A DNA stretch of 63,661 nt. Origin: an uncultured archaeon (GTDB taxonomy: Archaea > Asgardarchaeota > Lokiarchaeia > Sigyniarchaeales > SOKP01). A program made the translations under genes and the position numbers. The notes under the pieces are model-generated. The model was given only the letters and a program-made list of their open reading frames with translations. It had not been told where the DNA came from and did not search any database. The DNA is taken from positions 1 through 63,661 of the forward strand of contig CAYLZE010000015.1 of NCBI GenBank assembly GCA_964388035.1, given 5' to 3'. Positions 1 to 12,785 of this stretch are shown here, piece after piece. Numbering within the stretch: position 1 is the first letter of the stretch; each line of letters starts with the position of its first letter.

Positions 1-564
1 TTGCCACAATATGTCCAAGACCTTTTTTATTCCGTCGGTGTCCAACTCGGGATATTCTCTATCTCGCTCAACATAACAGTGACCGCAAGAATTATTACAT
101 CTATAAGTTAATGCCAAATCAACCCTCATGGGAAATTCCGAAACCTTAAATGCAGTCCGTTCTCCTGCCAGATCCAAAAAAGGATTCACATCTTCTTGGG
201 TTAACAAGATTTCGATTTTATCCATCAACTCATTGTAATCACTTTCTACTTCTTCGGGCGTGGTTCTATAATATTTCACGAAAAATTCTTGAATTTCTTC
301 CAGTGTTTTATGTTCTATTAGGTGTTGAATATAAACCATTGCAGTATGGTTCAAATATAGCACGGCTTCCGCATCAACAATTAATACCCCTTTCCCATTA
401 TTCAAAAGTCTCAAGTGGAACTTGTGAGTGCCCGTATCTCTAAATTCTACCAAGCTTGAATAAACCTTCTTCGCATCTTCTGCTAAATGAATTTGTGGCA
501 ATACTTTCTTCTTAATTTTTTTAAGAAATTTCCTCATACCACTCTTTGATTTTTGTGAGCTCAT
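1..564 (-). CDS. Radical SAM protein with N-terminal PqqD/RRE-like domain (5' part; runs off the left edge)
   Basis: Not in the ORF track. Manual translation gives MSSQKSKSGMRKFLKK...GKGVLIVDAEAVLYLNHTAMVYIQHLIEHKTLEEIQEFFVKYYRTTPEEVESDYNELMDKIE...FPMRVDLALTYRCNNSCGHCY...LDTDGIKKVLDILWQ. CxxxCxxC at 76-99, preceded by a PqqD-like 'LN.TA..I...T..EI......Y....E.V..D' segment. GGAGGT RBS at 575-580. Alternative in-frame ATGs at 573 and 537. Confidence 0.9.
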   Translation of the reverse strand, partial: MSSQKSKSGMRKFLKKIKKKVLPQIHLAEDAKKVYSSLVEFRDTGTHKFHLRLLNNGKGVLIVDAEAVLYLNHTAMVYIQHLIEHKTLEEIQEFFVKYYRTTPEEVESDYNELMDKIEILLTQEDVNPFLDLAGERTAFKVSEFPMRVDLALTYRCNNSCGHCYVERDREYPELDTDGIKKVLDILWQ

Positions 565-582
565 TCTATGCATTACCTCCTT

Positions 583-2463
583 TCATCTTCCTCCGCCAGC
601 ACATGCACACGCACAACCAGCACATGCACACGCACAAGCGCAACCTCCTCCCGATCGGCTCCCTCCACCTCTGCTTCCCGAAGCGGGTCTCTGAACGGGA
701 GCTACTGTTTGGATTATAGTATTTGCAAAGTTAGAAAAATTTTGTACTATCGTGTTGCTCATGTTTTCCATGCCCCTGACAATTGAATCGGCGAACGTAA
801 ACATGTTAATCCTTTCAGTAGGAATGGTTCTAGATACATTTCCCGGATGATAAGAATAATAATGTCTGGGACCCCAATAATACCCGTAATAATAATAATA
901 AGGATACCAGTAAGGTGTAGTATAGTAGTACCTGTTTGAAAAATACTTTTCCGATTTATCCTCAAAATCATCGTCTAAGATCATCCAATCTAATTTATCT
1001 TCAATATCTTCCCATTTAATCTCATTGGGCATTCCATTAATCTCTTCCCATGCTTCAATGATCATGCTTTGATAATAATGGATCGTATCCTCTAGGTGAA
1101 ATCCAATCATTTTTTTATTAGTTGCCTTGATTAAATTTATTAATAACAGCTTAAGTTTCTCTTGATCTACTAACCCCTTCCTAGAACCTTTGGAAATAAT
1201 AGCATTGAGAAAATCTTTTTGATATGGGTGTATCTTCTCCTCCCCTTTTGGGGAAATTGCCTCGAACTTTAGGGGCTCAACACTCAAGATTTTAAGATGC
1301 CCCGTTCGGATGAGGGAAAACATAATCAAGAACACGACCTTTTTTAATGGAATATTTTGAATGATCGCTGCTTCTACCACGGTAAGGTGTTTATTCACAC
1401 CCACGCTATCAATTTTTATGAAGGGTTTATCATAAGGTAATTTTCCATATCGTTTTTTTAATAATTTACTAAGAAAGTACCCCATCATTCCAAATCCGGC
1501 AATAACCACGCAAAAAAATAGTATGATTAAAAGGACATTACCTATAGCATCCCAAAACGGTATAAAAAATATGGCTGCGAAAATGGATAACCAACAAATA
1601 ACCACTACAACACTTCTCTGAGATTGTTTTGGGCTGGGAGGATAATATCGCCGCTTGAATTTCTTATGATAATTATAAAATAAATAAATTCCTCCAATCG
1701 CGAGACTGCTAATGCTTATAGTTAACAGAATGGTAATAATAATAACAACAAGAGCAGGATTCGTTTGACTTGGTTGAAAAGTATTCACGTAACTCTTAGG
1801 AAACGACACCCCGAAGGTATATTGTTGCATGGGAACATTAGTTTTTATCCACGTATAAATTAGGTCCCCATCTTTATCATAACTATACCCAGAAAACTCT
1901 TCGCCATGATATTTCACAATATTGCCATTAGATAACCCGTCAGGAAAATAAATATTAACTTCTAAATATTGGAACGTACTCGCATAATCGGAATCGAACC
2001 AAGTAGGAGAAAATTCAACACTTGCTAGGCTATTATTTTCATAATCTTCGTAGATCATTTCGGGATTATTCCCAATAACGTGCAGAGTTTTTGTATTCCC
2101 CGAAGCGATTTCATATGGATACAGCCATATTTCCACGCCGATATCAATAACGGTGGAAGGTTTAATATCGGTGAGCTCATGTCCATCGATATCTGCTTTC
2201 ACGCTATCAATGTTATAATGTTCATTTGGAAATCCTATATCCACCACATAAATAGGCTCTCCCTTGTTGGTAAACGTTATCCAGTATTCAATGGTAATAG
2301 AACCATCTTTTTCAATATATACATTAACTTTTTCCGAATTTACGTTAAAATTATAAGCTTGTGCTTTACCATTAGCAAGCAACGTGCTAAAAAATATGCA
2401 AGAAATTAAAATGCTAAGAATTATAAAGACTATTTTTTTTCTCATGATTTTTTCTCTTACCAT
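583..2463 (-). CDS. Large membrane protein (DUF2207-like layout) with C-terminal Gly/Ser linker and Cys-Ala repeat tail
   Basis: N-terminal signal/TM helix, ~200-aa beta-rich domain, three TM helices, cytoplasmic domain, Tyr-rich patch. Ends SGSRGGGSRSGGGCACACACAGCACACAGGGR. Confidence 0.85.
   Translation of the reverse strand: MVREKIMRKKIVFIILSILISCIFFSTLLANGKAQAYNFNVNSEKVNVYIEKDGSITIEYWITFTNKGEPIYVVDIGFPNEHYNIDSVKADIDGHELTDIKPSTVIDIGVEIWLYPYEIASGNTKTLHVIGNNPEMIYEDYENNSLASVEFSPTWFDSDYASTFQYLEVNIYFPDGLSNGNIVKYHGEEFSGYSYDKDGDLIYTWIKTNVPMQQYTFGVSFPKSYVNTFQPSQTNPALVVIIITILLTISISSLAIGGIYLFYNYHKKFKRRYYPPSPKQSQRSVVVVICWLSIFAAIFFIPFWDAIGNVLLIILFFCVVIAGFGMMGYFLSKLLKKRYGKLPYDKPFIKIDSVGVNKHLTVVEAAIIQNIPLKKVVFLIMFSLIRTGHLKILSVEPLKFEAISPKGEEKIHPYQKDFLNAIISKGSRKGLVDQEKLKLLLINLIKATNKKMIGFHLEDTIHYYQSMIIEAWEEINGMPNEIKWEDIEDKLDWMILDDDFEDKSEKYFSNRYYYTTPYWYPYYYYYGYYWGPRHYYSYHPGNVSRTIPTERINMFTFADSIVRGMENMSNTIVQNFSNFANTIIQTVAPVQRPASGSRGGGSRSGGGCACACACAGCACACAGGGR
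596..637. repeat. Perfect 21-bp tandem repeat (ccagcacatgcacacgcacaa x2) encoding the CACACAG units of the tail
   Basis: Direct reading: 596-616 is identical to 617-637. Confidence 0.9.
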
Positions 2464-2846
2464 TTTACTTTACTTCTTGGAATTAAATTCTCGGTACCGC
2501 AAGATTCGCATATCACGCTCTTTTTTCCTCGTAAATCCTCCGTTATTTCGATAGGTGCCTGGCATTCTCGGCATATAATTTCAACTGGAACCGTGGATTG
2601 ATCAGTTGTACCAAATTGCGCTTGTTCAGGTATTCTAACAATAGCTTGTCGTTTTCTTTGAATTAGAATGGAAATCACTACGAGTATTAGGATTCCCAAG
2701 ACAATAAGGGTAATCCCTATTATTAATCGTGAAAGTGTAAGGGCAGGAATTACAGGAGCGGCTAATAAGTAAAGTAATCCTATTGAAATGAATACTATGA
2801 ATAAGATATAGCTAATTACTCTCAAAAAACGGTAAGATTTTTCCAT
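2457..2846 (-). CDS. Small 2-TM membrane protein with C-terminal zinc ribbon
   Basis: Two hydrophobic helices, then CRECQ...CESCG. Overlaps the start of the 626-aa gene, suggesting translational coupling. Confidence 0.8.
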   Translation of the reverse strand: MEKSYRFLRVISYILFIVFISIGLLYLLAAPVIPALTLSRLIIGITLIVLGILILVVISILIQRKRQAIVRIPEQAQFGTTDQSTVPVEIICRECQAPIEITEDLRGKKSVICESCGTENLIPRSKVKW

Positions 2847-2971: not shown

Positions 2972-4321
2972 ATGCAATATAATTATTTCGATGAAAAAAG
3001 AGAAAAAACTCCGTGGAAAGAACTTGAAGATAATCTCATGAAGAGCGGGAAATGGACATTAAAGCGACTCCATGATAATATCCCTTTTTTAAAAAAAAGA
3101 TATGAGGAAGCGGGGGTGAGTTCCGATGATCTCAAAACCATGGAAGATTTTCAAAAAATTCCTTATATGAACAAGCAAGATTTTCTCGATAGCTTTCCGG
3201 ATAAACTATTGTGCGTGTCTCATGAAGATGTGGTGAGAATGCATGCCACGAGTGGTACATCGGGTCATCGACCAACTTGTGGATTTTATACCCAGAAAGA
3301 TCTTGATCATTGGACTTATTTATGTGCACGAAATTTGGGCGCCATTGGAATGACCAAAAAAGATATTTTTCAAAACACTACCTCCGCGGGACTATTTACA
3401 GGAGGATTCGGGTATGCGCAAGGTTGCACTTTATTGGGTGCCATGCTCATCCCTTTCGGACCGGGCATGACCTCTCGTCAATTAGAATTTTTTAAAACCT
3501 TTAAAGTCACTTCTTTTCACGCAATTCCATCTTTTGGATTACGATTAGCAGAAGTCATGGAAGAAGCGGGAGTTAAAAAAGAGGATCTCTATTTGAAATA
3601 TGCAATTCTAGGGGCAGAAGGATGGGCAGAATCTACCCGTAAAACTATCGAATCCCGCCTGGGAATTAAAGCTTATGATAATTACGGCTTAACTGAGGCA
3701 TACGGTCCCGGTGTTGCTGTGGAGTGTCAAGAACAAAATGGCCTTCATTTATGGTCGGATTATTATTATCCAGAAATAATTGATCCTAAAACGGGCGAGG
3801 TTTTAGGAGAGGGACAATCGGGAGAATTAGTCTTGACGAGCCTCACTAAAGAAGCCGTGCCCATCTTTAGGTACCGAACGGGAGACATTACCTCCATGAG
3901 AAAGAGTGAATGTCCGTGTGGAAGAACGGGCTATATAATAGACAGAATTAAAGGAAGAAAGGATGACATGCACGTGATCAAGGGCGTGAATGTCTACCCA
4001 AGCATGATCGAAGAAGAAATCTTTAACCTGTCCTCCTACTTCACGGATGTTTATTTAATCATATATCATACTGTTGGGGTAATGGACCAAATCGCTGCTA
4101 ACGTGGAAGTAAAACCCGGAGTAGATGTTGAGAAAGCTAAAAGAGAGCTTGAAAAAAACCTCCTGGAAGCCACTTTTCTCCGAATTGATGTTCAAACTTT
4201 TCCTCCTGGAACACTACCTCGACAAGAAGGTAAAGCAATACGGTGTAGAGATATTCGGGATAGACCAGAAGGGTATAAGGGATGGTTACAGATGATGCAA
4301 GAACAAAATAAATCTCACTGA
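2972..4321 (+). CDS. paaK: Phenylacetate--CoA ligase family protein (PaaK-like)
   Basis: HATSGTSG P-loop, GLFTGG, YGLTE, RYRTGD, GRKDDM..KGVNVYPS..E, LPRQEGKA motifs. Confidence 0.9.
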   Translation: MQYNYFDEKREKTPWKELEDNLMKSGKWTLKRLHDNIPFLKKRYEEAGVSSDDLKTMEDFQKIPYMNKQDFLDSFPDKLLCVSHEDVVRMHATSGTSGHRPTCGFYTQKDLDHWTYLCARNLGAIGMTKKDIFQNTTSAGLFTGGFGYAQGCTLLGAMLIPFGPGMTSRQLEFFKTFKVTSFHAIPSFGLRLAEVMEEAGVKKEDLYLKYAILGAEGWAESTRKTIESRLGIKAYDNYGLTEAYGPGVAVECQEQNGLHLWSDYYYPEIIDPKTGEVLGEGQSGELVLTSLTKEAVPIFRYRTGDITSMRKSECPCGRTGYIIDRIKGRKDDMHVIKGVNVYPSMIEEEIFNLSSYFTDVYLIIYHTVGVMDQIAANVEVKPGVDVEKAKRELEKNLLEATFLRIDVQTFPPGTLPRQEGKAIRCRDIRDRPEGYKGWLQMMQEQNKSH

Positions 4322-4450: not shown

Positions 4451-5440
4451 TTAAGGTGTAGTATCATGTTGCTTTTTAGAATAGGGAGATAATTTAACCA
4501 GCATAAACTTCACTAAGGGACCAATAATTTTTAAGGCGAACCTTGTCAGTCGGAATTTTCGCTTCATTTTTTCGATATATTTCTGAAAGGGTTCCGTTTG
4601 AAAGTTAAGGACTTCTTGGGACTCCTTGGTATCCATCCAATCGATATAGAACCATTCCTCTGTTTTTGCGGGTTTCCTGAAAGCTTTATCGGGAAGCATG
4701 GGTAATCCGAAGGCATCAAAGAATCCCTTTAAAAAGTCTCTTTGTACAAGTTGACTCTCCGCACCCCCCCCAATCAGAAAAACCTTGTTAATATCCTCTA
4801 ACTTTACCGCATTAGCGAATGCAATTCCACAATCGATTGAAGATACGAATTCAATGCGTTGGTCAAGTGGTACTTCGTATATGATAGAGTAAGAACTTAG
4901 AGGAAATTTATCAACTGAAACGGCACCTAGCCTTAGGACTGTCCAAGGAAGGCCACTCTCTTTCAACATTCTTTCACATTCTACTTTTGTATGTGAATAA
5001 TGATCGGAAGGATTCAAGGGAGTATCAACTTTCACGGGAGGCTCTAAGTGCATTGTTGGACCGTATACACTCATGGAACTTGCTATTATGAATTTTGGCT
5101 TATTTGGCAAAGCTCTCACGGCATTTATAAGATTTCGCGTTCCCTCAATATTTACTTTTTTTGTCAATTCTGGCTTTTGTTCACTTAGAGGAGGGATGAT
5201 AGCTGCCAGATGTATGATGCAATCAATATCCTTAATTGCCTTATCAATATCATCTTTTTCGAGTATATTTCCCCAAATTGTTTTAAAATTCCATTCCTTT
5301 GCTAATTTGGCACGCGATTTTTCATTTGCAGGATTTTGTAAATCGAAACAAGTGACATTATATCTACGTGTAAGAAGTTGCTTTAGAGTATTTTGTCCCA
5401 CATTACCAAAAGCACCGGTTAAAAGAATATTTTGTGCCAT
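4451..5440 (-). CDS. NAD-dependent epimerase/dehydratase (extended SDR)
   Basis: TGAFGNVG, HLAA and YSHTK (YxxxK) motifs. Confidence 0.9.
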   Translation of the reverse strand: MAQNILLTGAFGNVGQNTLKQLLTRRYNVTCFDLQNPANEKSRAKLAKEWNFKTIWGNILEKDDIDKAIKDIDCIIHLAAIIPPLSEQKPELTKKVNIEGTRNLINAVRALPNKPKFIIASSMSVYGPTMHLEPPVKVDTPLNPSDHYSHTKVECERMLKESGLPWTVLRLGAVSVDKFPLSSYSIIYEVPLDQRIEFVSSIDCGIAFANAVKLEDINKVFLIGGGAESQLVQRDFLKGFFDAFGLPMLPDKAFRKPAKTEEWFYIDWMDTKESQEVLNFQTEPFQKYIEKMKRKFRLTRFALKIIGPLVKFMLVKLSPYSKKQHDTTP

Positions 5441-5898
5441 TTTAAATTCTTCTTTTTAATTTTTTCTTTTTTGCTATATTAGATGCATGATTTAAATTTC
5501 TAAATTAAACTTAAATCACATCCCTAACAAAATAACAGACGTTAATAATATGAATTATTTTGGATAAAAAAGTTTTTTACTTGATCATTCAAGTTGTCAT
5601 TATTAAAAAAAAATTATTGACGAAAAAAGATGAATAAGAGAATCCTTTCCTTGAATTGCTCTTAAGCCCTTTTCCCTTGGATTATTGTTTTGACCAGAAG
5701 ATAAGGTGATTAAATAGAAAAATATCTTTACTAGTTTAGTCGAGTATAAAGGATATTTAAAATTGAATCATGAAATAAAGAAAAATCAATAAGTATTCAT
5801 TATACTAATTTTTAATGGGATCTTCTAAGGATCCTTTTCAAGTGTGTTAAAAAAAGAGTTCTATCGAAAGGAAAAGCTAAAGCTCTATTAAAAACAAG

Positions 5899-6087
5899 TT
5901 ATTTTATATTCTCTTTTTTCCATTTTTTCATGAAATTTCTGAAATCTGAATCTGCAATTCCAATGGAATTAATTTTTTTATTAATTTGAATCGGATTGAC
6001 TTTTTTAATGCCAAAATCCTTCTTCAAATTTCTTTTTCGAAAATTTAATTCCCAATCCAAGTAGGAGTTATTAACTACTTTTGACAT
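5899..6087 (-). CDS. Small basic hypothetical protein (uncertain)
   Basis: Lys-rich ORF from ATG (MSKVVNNSYLDWE...) with no recognisable motif. The track extends it to 6123. Confidence 0.3.
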   Translation of the reverse strand: MSKVVNNSYLDWELNFRKRNLKKDFGIKKVNPIQINKKINSIGIADSDFRNFMKKWKKENIK

Positions 6088-6303
6088 GTTTATATAACAT
6101 GTTAACTGATTAATAAATAACAAGAGTGTACCAATTTTCTAAAATTTTGATGGGTTTTTTCTCGTTTTTCCTTCCTTCCTTTGATAATCGAAGGTTATGA
6201 TAAAATACAATCTTCTTAAAAAAAGTGAATATTTTCTAAAAAAAAATGAATTTGATTTCCTCCTAAAGCATTAAACTGAAAGTTATTTCTTTGATTTGGT
6301 TGA

Positions 6304-6468
6304 TTACTTTTTAACGAGAGGGACACCACAGCATTCAAAATTGCATTCTTCATCGCATCCGCACGAGTTATCATTGCATTCATTGCACGTTTGTTTAACT
6401 TCCAAGAGAAGATGGCACTCTGGACATTCTAAAACATCCCCAATTCTTAAATCATGACAACCTACCAT
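6304..6468 (-). CDS. 54-aa Cys-rich metal-binding miniprotein (desulforedoxin/metallothionein-like)
   Basis: Missed by the track. MVGCHDLRIGDVLECPECHLLLEVKQTCNECNDNSCGCDEECNFECCGVPLVKK*, 10 Cys, with a CxxC...CCG.PL pattern and a GAGTGA RBS upstream. Confidence 0.8.
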   Translation of the reverse strand: MVGCHDLRIGDVLECPECHLLLEVKQTCNECNDNSCGCDEECNFECCGVPLVKK

Positions 6469-6781
6469 TTTTTTTCACTCTTAAAATTAGTTTTTATTAT
6501 TAGAAGATCCATTGATATATAAAAAACTAAGTATTAATTTTTTAAAATGAAAACCATGCAAGATTAATTTAAATAAACTTTTTCTAGCGGCATTATCATC
6601 TTTTAATGAACTATTATCCATCATTTTTTTGGCTTTAAATAAATAATAGTAGCCGCGTTTCTGAAATCTATTCTACCTCTTTAGTGAGAAATTTAATGAT
6701 AAGTATTCAAAAAGAACGAGGTAGTTAGAATCTATAATCATGGTTAAGATATCATGAGATTTTCATTATTTTATAATCCCA

Positions 6782-7297
6782 TCATAATAAATCTAAAACA
6801 TAATGTGTTAACTTATCAAAAGCTTCTAATACGTTCATGTTATTTTTACTCGAGGTTTTTACATAGTCGACCATTTTATACTTTTTTTGGGTTTTTTTAG
6901 CTAACAGGTCTCCCACCATTGAAAACTCCTTGAGGTCATATTTCGAAGCGATTAATATTACCGGGAGGCTTTCATAATACTTGTTGACAAGCGACATCCA
7001 TTTTCCAATATTAACAAAGCTCGTCATTAAGGTGATATCAAATAATAAAAGTGCTCCGTGAGCGCCCTTCATGTAATTTTCCACCATGAATCTGAATCTT
7101 TCTTGCCCGCTGATATCATATATCATTAATTGACAATTCATAGCATCTATCAGAAATGATTTAGTAAAAACATCCATTCCGATTGTCATGGTTGCTGAGT
7201 CAATAAATTCTCCCTGTACAAATCTATTTATCAGCGATGTCTTTCCTACACCACCATCTCCTAATATTAAGAATTTTAATGTTACTTGTTTCGGCAT
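6782..7297 (-). CDS. Rab-like small GTPase (Ras superfamily)
   Basis: G1 GDGGVGKT, G2 TIG, G3 DISGQERF, YMKGAHG, G4 SKYD, G5 TSSK. No C-terminal prenylation Cys. Confidence 0.92.
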   Translation of the reverse strand: MPKQVTLKFLILGDGGVGKTSLINRFVQGEFIDSATMTIGMDVFTKSFLIDAMNCQLMIYDISGQERFRFMVENYMKGAHGALLLFDITLMTSFVNIGKWMSLVNKYYESLPVILIASKYDLKEFSMVGDLLAKKTQKKYKMVDYVKTSSKNNMNVLEAFDKLTHYVLDLL

Positions 7298-7728
7298 TTT
7301 TATCGTTCGATTTAATTATATACTCAATAGTGATTACAAAATTAATTTTCTATAATAACATGATCTAATGCAACCATGAATAAATTCATTCAAAAAGTTT
7401 TGCATCTCCTTTATTTTTAAAAAAAAAATTATTAAATCTCCATGAATTCGTTTTCAAATTAATCGTAGGTATGGTTTTCCCTTTACGTTGTTTTAAAGAC
7501 AATGCTATAAATTGCATTGATTTACTAAATTATAATAAAACCTAAATGCTCCCGTCTGAAATAATTAAATCTCAGGTATTATTGCAATGTTAACTAAAAA
7601 AGCTTTTTTTTGAATTTTTTAAATTTCTTTTTTCGATGAGGGTTTGATTTTTTCACATTATCTCCATGAAACAAAAAAGAAAAAGATGATTTTAAAATTT
7701 ACATTTTAGTGTGAAAGAACAATCTACC

Positions 7729-11790: not shown

Positions 11791-12204
11791 ATGATTCAGT
11801 TATCGGTATTCCTTCCAAACGTACCAGGGACTTTTTCTAAATTCCTTGATGTCTTTATTGCACACGAAATCGAGATTCTCGGTATAACTGTGGCGGAAAG
11901 TGACGAATTTGGATTACTCCTTTTATTGGTAGATAAACCTAAAGAATGCATTAATGTATTAGATGAACATGACTATTCTGTTTCTGCTACCGAAGTTATT
12001 GGAGTTAAAATCGATTCAGAGAGCAATACAAAAGCAATGAAGCAAATAGCTAGTCTTTTAGGAGATAATGAAATTAATATTGAATATTTGTATAGTTCGT
12101 TGGTAAGACATGAAGCGATTATCATTCTAAAAGTCGATGACATCGAAAATGCAAAACGGGTCTTAAAAGAAAGTCAATTTGAGATCGCAGGGGACCAAGT
12201 TTAA
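11791..12204 (+). CDS. Tandem ACT-domain protein (paralog 2)
   Basis: QLSVFLPNVPG...AESDEFGLL.LLVDKP...INIEYLYSS; aligns with paralog 1. Confidence 0.88.
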   Translation: MIQLSVFLPNVPGTFSKFLDVFIAHEIEILGITVAESDEFGLLLLLVDKPKECINVLDEHDYSVSATEVIGVKIDSESNTKAMKQIASLLGDNEINIEYLYSSLVRHEAIIILKVDDIENAKRVLKESQFEIAGDQV

Positions 12205-12368
12205 AAATAGGAGAAACTCCTTTATTCCTTATAAAGAATAGGTAATTAGAGGTTCATTTTTACGTATTTAACAATAGATTAATATACAATCTAATTTTTA
12301 CCATTTATAAAGTATACATTTAGAGAGAATTAATTTTATAACTACAAAAATAACAGGGATTTAACCAA

Positions 12369-12785
12369 ATGTTGCAAGAAATATCGTTATTTCTCCCGAA
12401 TTATCCGGGAGTTTTGGCCCAATTAAGTTTACTCTTGAGAGCCAACGAGATTAAAATAATTGCGATTTCTGTCGCCCAAACAAAAGAGTATGGGTTAGTC
12501 ATGATTTTAGTGGACAAACCTTCCGAATGCATTGCCATTCTGGAGGAGAATGAGTATGAATATCACGTGAAAGAGGTGGTGTTGATCAACATGATTGATA
12601 AACCGGAAATAATAAATGATATCGCGGAAATCATGGGTGTAAATGACATCAATATCGAATATATCTACTCCACCCTAGTCCGACGTCAAAAAAATGAAGC
12701 TTACTTGATCCTTAATACAAATAATAATGAAAAAGCAACAAGCACTCTAAAGGAGAAAGGGTTTTCGCTTTTAGAATCGGTTTAA
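12369..12785 (+). CDS. Tandem ACT-domain protein (paralog 3)
   Basis: EISLFLPNYPGVL...AQTKEYGLV.ILVDKP...INIEYIYS. Confidence 0.88.
   Translation: MLQEISLFLPNYPGVLAQLSLLLRANEIKIIAISVAQTKEYGLVMILVDKPSECIAILEENEYEYHVKEVVLINMIDKPEIINDIAEIMGVNDINIEYIYSTLVRRQKNEAYLILNTNNNEKATSTLKEKGFSLLESV

Follow-up and report, generated by a model that had tools for sequence, protein, structure and literature searches.

Introduction

Enzymes that join a RiPP recognition element (RRE; RiPP, ribosomally synthesised and post-translationally modified peptide) to radical S-adenosylmethionine (SAM) and SPASM domains are, to our knowledge, known almost solely as makers of small-peptide natural products, and we know of very few examples of the enzymatic installation of thioethers on full-size proteins (QhpC, and CrpA in 2026). 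QhpC is the gamma subunit of quinohemoprotein amine dehydrogenase, and the radical SAM/SPASM enzyme QhpD reportedly makes thioethers inside this protein, which is kept in a functional complex. In Methanococcus voltae, the RRE-radical SAM-SPASM enzyme CrpC puts ranthionine thioethers on the 28.8-kDa protein CrpA (PMC13692751, 2026). On a peptide with Cys at every second position, StsB builds a sactionine hairpin by joining C2-x-C4-x-C6 to G11-x-G13-x-G15 (PMC10288494). Here we analyse a 63,661-nucleotide (nt) stretch from an uncultured Asgard archaeon of the order Sigyniarchaeales (assembly GCA_964388035.1, contig CAYLZE010000015.1, positions 1 to 63,661; hereafter the window, its contig being C15), which begins with a gene cassette that places an enzyme of this kind beside a full-size membrane protein ending in a Cys-Ala tail.

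Comparative genomics supports the interpretation of this cassette as a putative RRE-radical SAM-SPASM modification system acting on a full-size membrane protein. As we envisage it, the system would have four parts: a zinc-ribbon membrane protein, the membrane protein that carries the tail, the RRE-radical SAM-SPASM enzyme, and one or two class I methyltransferases. An earlier note, made from the letters of this stretch, had put the Cys-Ala tail forward as a candidate substrate of the radical SAM enzyme; the comparison of genomes lends that candidacy support, and analogy with characterised enzymes suggests what the chemistry might be.

A compact operon split between two contigs

Three genes lie head to tail on the minus strand at the start of the window. 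The first, read as an open reading frame (ORF) from the sequence (2457..2846), encodes a zinc-ribbon membrane protein of 129 amino acids (aa). It shares 7 nt with the gene of the 626-aa membrane protein with the Cys-Ala tail (583..2463), which matches no Pfam or NCBIfam family and whose homologues are annotated as ‘hypothetical proteins’ only. The stop codon of this gene is followed after 9 nt by the start of the RRE-radical SAM-SPASM gene, of which the window holds the N-terminal 191 aa (1..573) before the contig end interrupts it. The earlier note's account of three tightly linked genes and their features holds at each position, apart from its remark that the ORF track had missed the start of the radical SAM gene: the gene is instead cut at the first base of contig C15. 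As this is also base 1 of the window, the truncation is an effect of assembly and not biology.

The remainder of the enzyme lies on contig C106 of the same genome (G000:C106:3-815, plus strand; locus L018), where 270 aa run through the SPASM domain. This contig opens in frame with IALTGGEP, a motif expected about 30 residues past the CX3CX2C cluster motif. Aligned to the orthologue in L142, a 70%-identical locus from another sample, the C15 and C106 pieces are 81-82% identical, and about five residues, VG[V/I]PH in orthologues, are absent between them. Gene order is unbroken in L142, agreeing with C15 at one end and with C106 at the other: a PaaK gene on the opposite strand, the zinc-ribbon protein, the tail protein, a 463-aa radical SAM enzyme, two methyltransferases, two small genes and a TauE-like protein. 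As in L142, two class I methyltransferase genes lie 3' of the radical SAM gene on C106 (L018:842-1648 and 1837-2637), the first beginning about 27 nt after its stop codon and encoding the C-terminal ...PIF... motif common to the methyltransferases of the bacterial cassettes.

The Cys-Ala tail is conserved at the level of the peptide

The proposed site of modification is the core tail CACACACAGCACACAGGGR (aa 608-626, 586..642 on the minus strand; stop codon at 583-585). The last 22 residues of the protein read GGGCACACACAGCACACAGGGR, with seven Cys within residues 608-621; the whole protein has ten Cys, and seven sit in its last 19 residues. This tail occurs once in the genome. It is preceded by a Gly/Ser/Arg-rich linker (aa 590-607, 643..696, minus strand), variable in both length and sequence in alignment A4 and disordered in the structural model, and, before that, by a pre-tail motif (aa 552-589, 697..810, minus strand) that is conserved in A4, with one Pro invariant and one Phe at least 90% conserved, and that forms two predicted helices (aa 554-572 and 576-587 in the AlphaFold2 (AF2) model). 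This motif may serve as a putative recognition, or ‘leader-like’, segment.

To leave the tail out of the search, we restricted the query to residues 1-500 of the membrane protein, which returned 70 further homologues (71 including the window protein) from Promethearchaeota/Lokiarchaeota, Ranarchaeia and metagenome-assembled genomes (MAGs) labelled Deltaproteobacteria and Deferrimicrobium. The 68 full-length homologues in alignment A2 are 29-71% identical to the window protein, and all end in the same tail. Across these, C610, C612-C614 and C617-G625 are invariant and C608, A609, A611 and R626 are at least 90% conserved, so that the tail is mostly invariant and otherwise at least 90% conserved, against a mean column identity of 35% for the alignment; Ala and Cys positions are invariant to the same degree. 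Tail variants include CACACACASCACACAGGGR, ...CVSCACACAGGGR and a longer form with a GGGVG end, as well as an uninterrupted GGGG(CA)6-7GGGR form in another Asgard family.

A degenerate DNA pattern for the tail, run on contigs of one genome per species, found at least 120 loci. Most of the listed loci are from Anaerolineae and other Chloroflexota, the others being from Acidobacteriota, Aminicenantes, Planctomycetota, Zixibacteria, Coatesbacteria, Sabulitectum, Hodarchaeota, Heimdallarchaeota and Promethearchaeota, and they include the cultured Ornatilinea apprima P3M-1 (locus L065). Among the loci listed, the 60-nt tail DNA is different at every one (120/120), synonymous sites are saturated, codon choice is free for Cys, Ala, Gly and Arg and each of the three stop codons is used, while the final Arg and the stop are present at 120/120, though neither was part of the search pattern. 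The constraint therefore acts on the peptide. Reversing the pattern as a control gave 0 matches in 201 genomes of the phylum; with the codon analysis, this rules out the tail as a chance or DNA-level repeat.

Searching 5.8 billion protein clusters with the last 60 aa, and scoring 8,000 candidates, recovered at least 4,114 clusters of large proteins that bear the tail, always at the C-terminus; these carry no Pfam domain and no name beyond “hypothetical protein”. Among the 98 newly listed tail proteins the median length is 554 aa, and every one ends in GGGR. Short tail-bearing proteins were matched in only 33 cases (33-105 aa). Each begins within the pre-tail motif, mostly on a very short contig, and we therefore regard them as pieces of the large protein. 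A few short tail ORFs do sit on long contigs, and these are copies of the large gene that are frameshifted in long-read assemblies. At seven loci (L056, L060, L082, L115, L120, L134 and L135), many of them in ‘MFD’ MAGs, the tail gene is split across reading frames, which probably reflects frameshift errors in these assemblies and not short precursor genes.

The earlier note saw no short precursor gene, and this stands once the contig edge is crossed: the C106 continuation runs into the SPASM domain and then the methyltransferases, and on the window and C106 no short precursor gene lies beside the enzyme, nor does the operon have room for one. As the operon is this tight and the short tail proteins are fragments, a separate short precursor was ruled out.

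The tail gene is linked to a radical SAM gene across phyla

Linkage was tallied over the 120 listed pattern loci, counting a locus as judgeable for the radical SAM gene where at least 400 nt lie downstream (n = 114). At 107 of these 114, the same strand carries an orthologous radical SAM gene that begins no more than 1 kb downstream, bearing out the co-occurrence that the earlier note had proposed to score, with the qualification that the reverse link, from enzyme to tail, is not absolute (see family f12 below). The linked enzymes share 34-95% identity with one of three reference enzymes, their genes mostly begin no more than 130 nt from the tail gene, and they include loci from Chloroflexota, Acidobacteriota, Zixibacteria, Coatesbacteria and Asgard archaea. 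These loci are phylogenetically related, so the 107 are not independent events; with only about six SPASM loci in this 5.5 Mb genome, chance adjacency is nevertheless negligible.

Two further genes recur among the listed loci, a zinc-ribbon gene upstream at 72/82 judgeable loci and a methyltransferase gene within 5 kb downstream at 41/66. Tail-protein homologues that are 26%, 31%, 54% and 70% identical to the window's tail protein keep the order of small zinc-ribbon protein, tail protein and 453-464-aa radical SAM/SPASM enzyme, with a methyltransferase further downstream in all four and directly after the enzyme in two; a zinc-ribbon homologue sits just upstream of the tail protein in L019, L020, L021, L142 and L165. 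The zinc-ribbon protein has two transmembrane (TM) helices followed by a cytoplasmic CxxC...CxxC motif (CRECQ...CESCG) and a KW end, and its Pfam matches are weak (DUF2614, E 0.0013). No conserved protease or exporter was found in the cassette at the loci examined.

At one metagenome locus (L019:9143-10885 and 12124-12564) the cassette adds a 115-aa protein and a second, membrane-anchored radical SAM-like paralogue, in whose SPASM-like end one or more of the usual Cys seem to be missing, and a C_GCAxxG_C_C protein is encoded nearby. None of these three proteins occurs in the window cassette.

The enzyme has the architecture of a RiPP maturase

The [4Fe-4S] cluster motif CX3CX2C of radical SAM enzymes is present as CNNSCGHC (aa 159-166, 76..99, minus strand). 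In alignment A3 of 47 orthologues the cluster cysteines C156, C160 and C163 are invariant, and PF04055 matches 47/47. Towards the N-terminus lies a PqqD-like/RRE stretch (aa 64-119, 217..384, minus strand), which PF05402 matches in the window copy at E 0.0092. The PqqD-like domain reported in the earlier note is thus RRE-like at the level of the family, as judged from PqqD (PF05402) matches in 37/47 orthologues (best E 1.9e-8), the structural model and fold matches, the window copy itself falling below threshold. The AF2 model (pLDDT, predicted local distance difference test, 81; predicted template modelling score 0.81) has strands at 34-71 followed by three helices at 73-122. The SPASM domain that the earlier note suggested looking for is found on the C106 piece (PF13186, E 6.8e-12; TIGR04085, 52 bits against a cut-off of 27), where CKDCELLQACGGGC forms its CX2CX5CX3C core; SPASM matches 47/47 orthologues, and A3 has seven invariant Cys in this region. 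Judged from sequence and models, the enzyme has the RRE-radical SAM-SPASM architecture of RiPP maturases.

The nearest solved sequences are SkfB, PqqE and SuiB, with CteB weaker, and the nearest folds are SuiB (solved with peptide), SkfB, CteB, PqqE and anSME, the SuiB and CteB alignments being almost full length. For the window fragment the best NCBIfam match is the subtilosin maturase AlbA (E 1.6e-8, far under its cut-off), and for full-length orthologues the best models are AhbD, NirJ2, PqqE, GeoRSP, WgkB, MftC and StsB (1e-28 to 1e-40), all below cut-off. The full-length L021 orthologue scores 88 bits against a curated cut-off of 850 for AlbA, 98.6 against 625 for StsB, 66 against 300 for SkfB and 104 against 650 for WgkB. 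TIGR04463, the CrpC type, gives 12.7 bits (E 0.04) on the window fragment against a cut-off of 525 and lies outside the 25 best-scoring families for each of the three full-length orthologues scanned; the QhpD model TIGR03906 gives 16.9 bits against 453, and the ACGX-repeat radical SAM model TIGR04340 gives 71-90 bits against 400, the neighbouring protein having Cys-Ala and not ACGX repeats. We therefore rejected assignment to any curated radical SAM family, none being reached at its cut-off. A complex prediction for a full-length orthologous enzyme (from A3) with the C-terminal 90 aa of the matching tail protein (from A4), three 4Fe-4S clusters and SAM scored 0.02 and is counted neither way.

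The tail protein is a multi-domain membrane protein

The AF2 model of the 626-aa protein has a mean pLDDT of 80. An N-terminal anchor (aa 2-28), which brings the number of TM helices to four, precedes an extracytoplasmic beta-sandwich (aa 39-222, 1798..2349, minus strand; pLDDT >90), which Foldseek likens to ribophorin I/Ost1 and to the M1 aminopeptidase N-domain (E 2e-9 to 1e-6); one tail-protein homologue also matches Pfam Ribophorin_I (E 1.6e-4). The other three TM helices (aa 237-263, 285-304 and 310-331; 1471..1755, minus strand), helical in the AF2 model, are joined by K/R-rich loops. Next comes a conserved domain (aa 340-481, 1021..1446, minus strand; pLDDT ~90), which is common to the (ACHS)n-tailed Asgard proteins described below, and the model shows a confident cytoplasmic alpha/beta domain at aa 362-530, with linker and tail disordered. 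From the sequence, the positive-inside rule and the AF2 helices, we infer that the C-terminal half of the protein is cytoplasmic, the same side of the membrane as would be expected for an Fe-S enzyme and for the zinc ribbon (N-in with two TM helices, so C-in). Between the cytoplasmic domain and the pre-tail motif, the chain passes through a low-complexity stretch rich in Tyr and Trp, RYYYTTPYWYPYYYYYGYYWGPRHYYSY (window 850-933, aa 511-538).

There is a weak lead that the tail protein is possibly distantly DUF2207-like. A language-model search placed its cytoplasmic part nearest to clusters automatically named DUF2207 (0.95 and 0.88), which we take as a lead only, and DUF2207_C gave seven weak matches among the 68 homologues, the best at a sub-significance E of 0.0078. 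The DUF2207 Pfam models PF09972 and PF20990 leave the window protein unmatched at E up to 1, and the DUF2207 N-domain was not found in this genome. The DUF2207 layout is presumably alike, with a signal anchor, a beta-rich ectodomain, TM helices, a cytoplasmic domain and a low-complexity C-terminus.

Tail types and enzyme subclades within Asgard archaea

The 201 genomes sampled from the phylum allow the enzyme and the tail to be followed separately. Radical SAM homologues at our threshold of E <= 1e-50 are found in 83/201 genomes, and the strict tail pattern in 11/201, namely the window genome, 4/4 genomes in one genus of its family and 6/10 in another family. In family f5, the protein adjoining the radical SAM enzyme (563-596 aa) ends in an uninterrupted (CA)n GGGR. 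In family f7, where the enzymes are 33-41% identical to the window enzyme, the adjoining protein, about 710-755 aa long as measured in stop-to-stop frames, terminates with (ACHS)n...CVSGGFR in 5/6 fetched loci (L152:3429-5612, L153:3320-5446, L154:1413-3677, L155:1455-3605 and L158:1127-3295, each beside the radical SAM gene). The CA family's cytoplasmic domain (aa 340-481) recurs in these (ACHS)n proteins (hhalign probability 99.5%, E 1.4e-22); their ectodomain and tail are unlike those of the CA family, and f7 seems to be a sister system that carries a different tail.

In a quick maximum-likelihood tree the tail-linked enzymes form one clade (support 94), apart from the other SPASM enzymes of this genome. 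The ACHS (99), uninterrupted-CA (100) and f12 (99) groups are each one clade, with f12 nested among the CA-linked clades. Enzyme subclades thus track the type of tail, be it interrupted CA, uninterrupted CA or (ACHS)n, a pattern that fits an enzyme paired with its substrate.

Proposed modification of the tail and alternative explanations

On balance we lean towards the view that the radical SAM enzyme modifies the cytoplasmic Cys-Ala tail in place, probably through thioether crosslinks. The enzyme would bind the C-terminal region of the membrane protein and act on the tail at the cytoplasmic face of the membrane, its substrate being the tail of the whole membrane protein and not a free peptide. 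By analogy with CrpC and StsB, the likeliest chemistry would be thioether crosslinks of the sactionine or ranthionine kind, running from Cys to nearby Ala or Gly, and the methyltransferase may supply a further step. One speculative register would place a turn at residue 8 of the 19-residue core, so that the Cys of each half face the Ala of the other (pairs 1-15, 3-13, 5-11 and 14-2, 12-4, 10-6). Such a register would account for Ala being no less invariant than Cys; the uninterrupted (CA)n variants weigh against the fixed Gly turn that it implies.

Several observations count against in-place modification of the tail. The RRE match of the window copy is below threshold (PF05402, 16.7 bits against a Pfam cut-off of 23.4), 7/114 judgeable tail loci have no radical SAM gene nearby, and, as no curated radical SAM family is reached at its cut-off, the type of reaction cannot be read from family membership. 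Family f12 has an enzyme 45-51% identical to the window enzyme in 19/19 sampled genomes, and at the four loci examined (L143-L146) a methyltransferase-like gene follows it with no tail protein adjoining. Neither the tail protein family nor any CACACA run was found in 4/5 f12 genomes tested (completeness 78-89%), the fifth having a tail protein on other contigs. Because of f12, we accept that this enzyme clade can persist without this tail or use another substrate. (At L143-L146 the f12 enzyme also adjoins a PHP-domain gene.) C-x-C repeats are, moreover, classic metal ligands, to which the (ACHS)n tails add His, and the tail could merely bind metal.

This last point leads to what we rank as the main rival, though we think it fairly unlikely: the tail is an unmodified metal or Fe-S thiolate patch, and the radical SAM enzyme acts elsewhere, or in cluster or cofactor handling, in the same membrane-associated process. 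Alternating Cys are typical of metal sites, the sister tails are rich in Cys and His, and f12 keeps the enzyme and the methyltransferase-like gene without the tail protein; the RRE and SPASM architecture is, however, that of peptide and protein modifiers, and plain metal ligation does not need Ala to be as invariant as Cys. The authors of the CrpA study suspect a metal-related role for that protein (PMC13692751), which speaks for a metal patch here too. Set against this are the tight, apparently translationally coupled linkage of tail and enzyme and a cassette that holds no other conserved candidate substrate. We would be surprised if the membrane protein were instead an oversized precursor whose modified tail is cleaved and released as a small RiPP-like product. 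Its C-terminus does resemble a leader, linker and core (conserved motif, Gly/Ser linker, invariant core), but the cassette has no conserved protease or exporter, the tail is predicted to be cytoplasmic, there are no free-standing precursor genes, and the remainder of the protein is conserved and confidently folded, so that it probably has a function of its own. Equally hard to credit is that the enzyme modifies another part of the protein, such as the cytoplasmic domain or the Tyr-rich segment, or the zinc-ribbon partner, leaving the tail for a role such as docking or lipidation. Known RRE-SPASM thioether enzymes act on Cys-rich cores, and the tail is by far the most conserved element and switches type with the enzyme subclade. 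The cytoplasmic domain is nonetheless the part common to CA- and ACHS-type proteins, the zinc-ribbon protein co-occurs at most judgeable loci listed (72/82), and whole domains take part in CrpA/CrpC binding (PMC13692751), all of which would suit a site other than the tail.

Beyond in-place modification itself, we entertain, as a fairly unlikely reading, that the modified (Cys-Ala)n tail is a protein-borne cofactor, either a thioether zipper or a modified polythiolate metal site, which would give this whole membrane-protein family a redox, metal-handling or signalling role on the cytoplasmic side of the membrane. If true, this would be a new class of protein-derived cofactor common to anaerobic bacteria and Asgard archaea, with sister systems using other Cys repeats such as (ACHS)n.

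Genomic surroundings of the cassette

Divergent from the cassette lies a gene for a PaaK-like phenylacetate-CoA ligase (window 2972-4321, plus strand; TIGR02155 E 2e-118, below cut-off), followed by one for a short-chain dehydrogenase/reductase (SDR) family epimerase/dehydratase (window 4451-5440, minus strand). Since the PaaK neighbour is retained in the 70%-identical L142 and absent from distant loci, it is probably no part of the system. GC content is 0.27-0.29 at window 5500-7500, against 0.35-0.42 in the flanks. The sequencing runs that contain this DNA hold small shares of it and come from marsh and salt-marsh metagenomes; no RNA run is among those listed, so they are silent on expression.

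Significance and comparison with described systems

Our literature search found no published description of CACACACAG, Cys-Ala or CACACA tails with radical SAM/SPASM enzymes, of DUF2207 with radical SAM, or of Asgard radical SAM RiPPs. A near-invariant 19-residue Cys-Ala tail on a membrane protein with a dedicated neighbouring enzyme, found in at least 4,114 clusters, all unnamed, spans many anaerobic phyla, Asgard archaea included. Were the tail modified, this would be a widespread protein modification, and one directly testable through the cultured carrier Ornatilinea apprima.

Among characterised systems, CrpC/CrpA shares with the cassette an RRE-radical SAM-SPASM enzyme beside a full-size protein with C-terminal Cys repeats in an archaeal host (PMC13692751). 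CrpC belongs to TIGR04463, whereas the window enzyme does not; CrpA is soluble, with an N-terminal leader and ten 17-residue repeats carrying C-x-x-Q/D (PMC13692751), whereas the candidate substrate here is a membrane protein with four TM helices and a single 19-residue Cys-Ala core at its extreme C-terminus. StsB/StsA and BlaB/BlaA are alike in having Cys at every second position, a radical SAM/SPASM enzyme and an RRE, with Cys crosslinked to Gly on the opposing hairpin strand; StsA, however, is a short peptide and its RRE (StsC) a separate protein (PMC10288494). On the StsB model, whose cut-off is 625, the window enzyme reaches 76-99 bits; Cys would here pair with Ala, and the uninterrupted (CA)n form lacks an obvious hairpin turn. 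SCIFF/CteB, AlbA and SkfB have the same domain order of RRE, radical SAM and SPASM/twitch and are among the best sequence and fold matches, but their substrates are short precursor peptides of 40-60 aa encoded alongside. QhpC differs in being, reportedly, a small soluble subunit without a Cys-Ala repeat. On sequence grounds, the cassette resembles CrpC/CrpA, StsB/StsA, QhpD/QhpC and SCIFF/CteB in architecture and falls in none of their curated families; what sets it apart from them is its membrane-protein substrate candidate, its single invariant C-terminal Cys-Ala run, and its conserved zinc-ribbon and methyltransferase partners.

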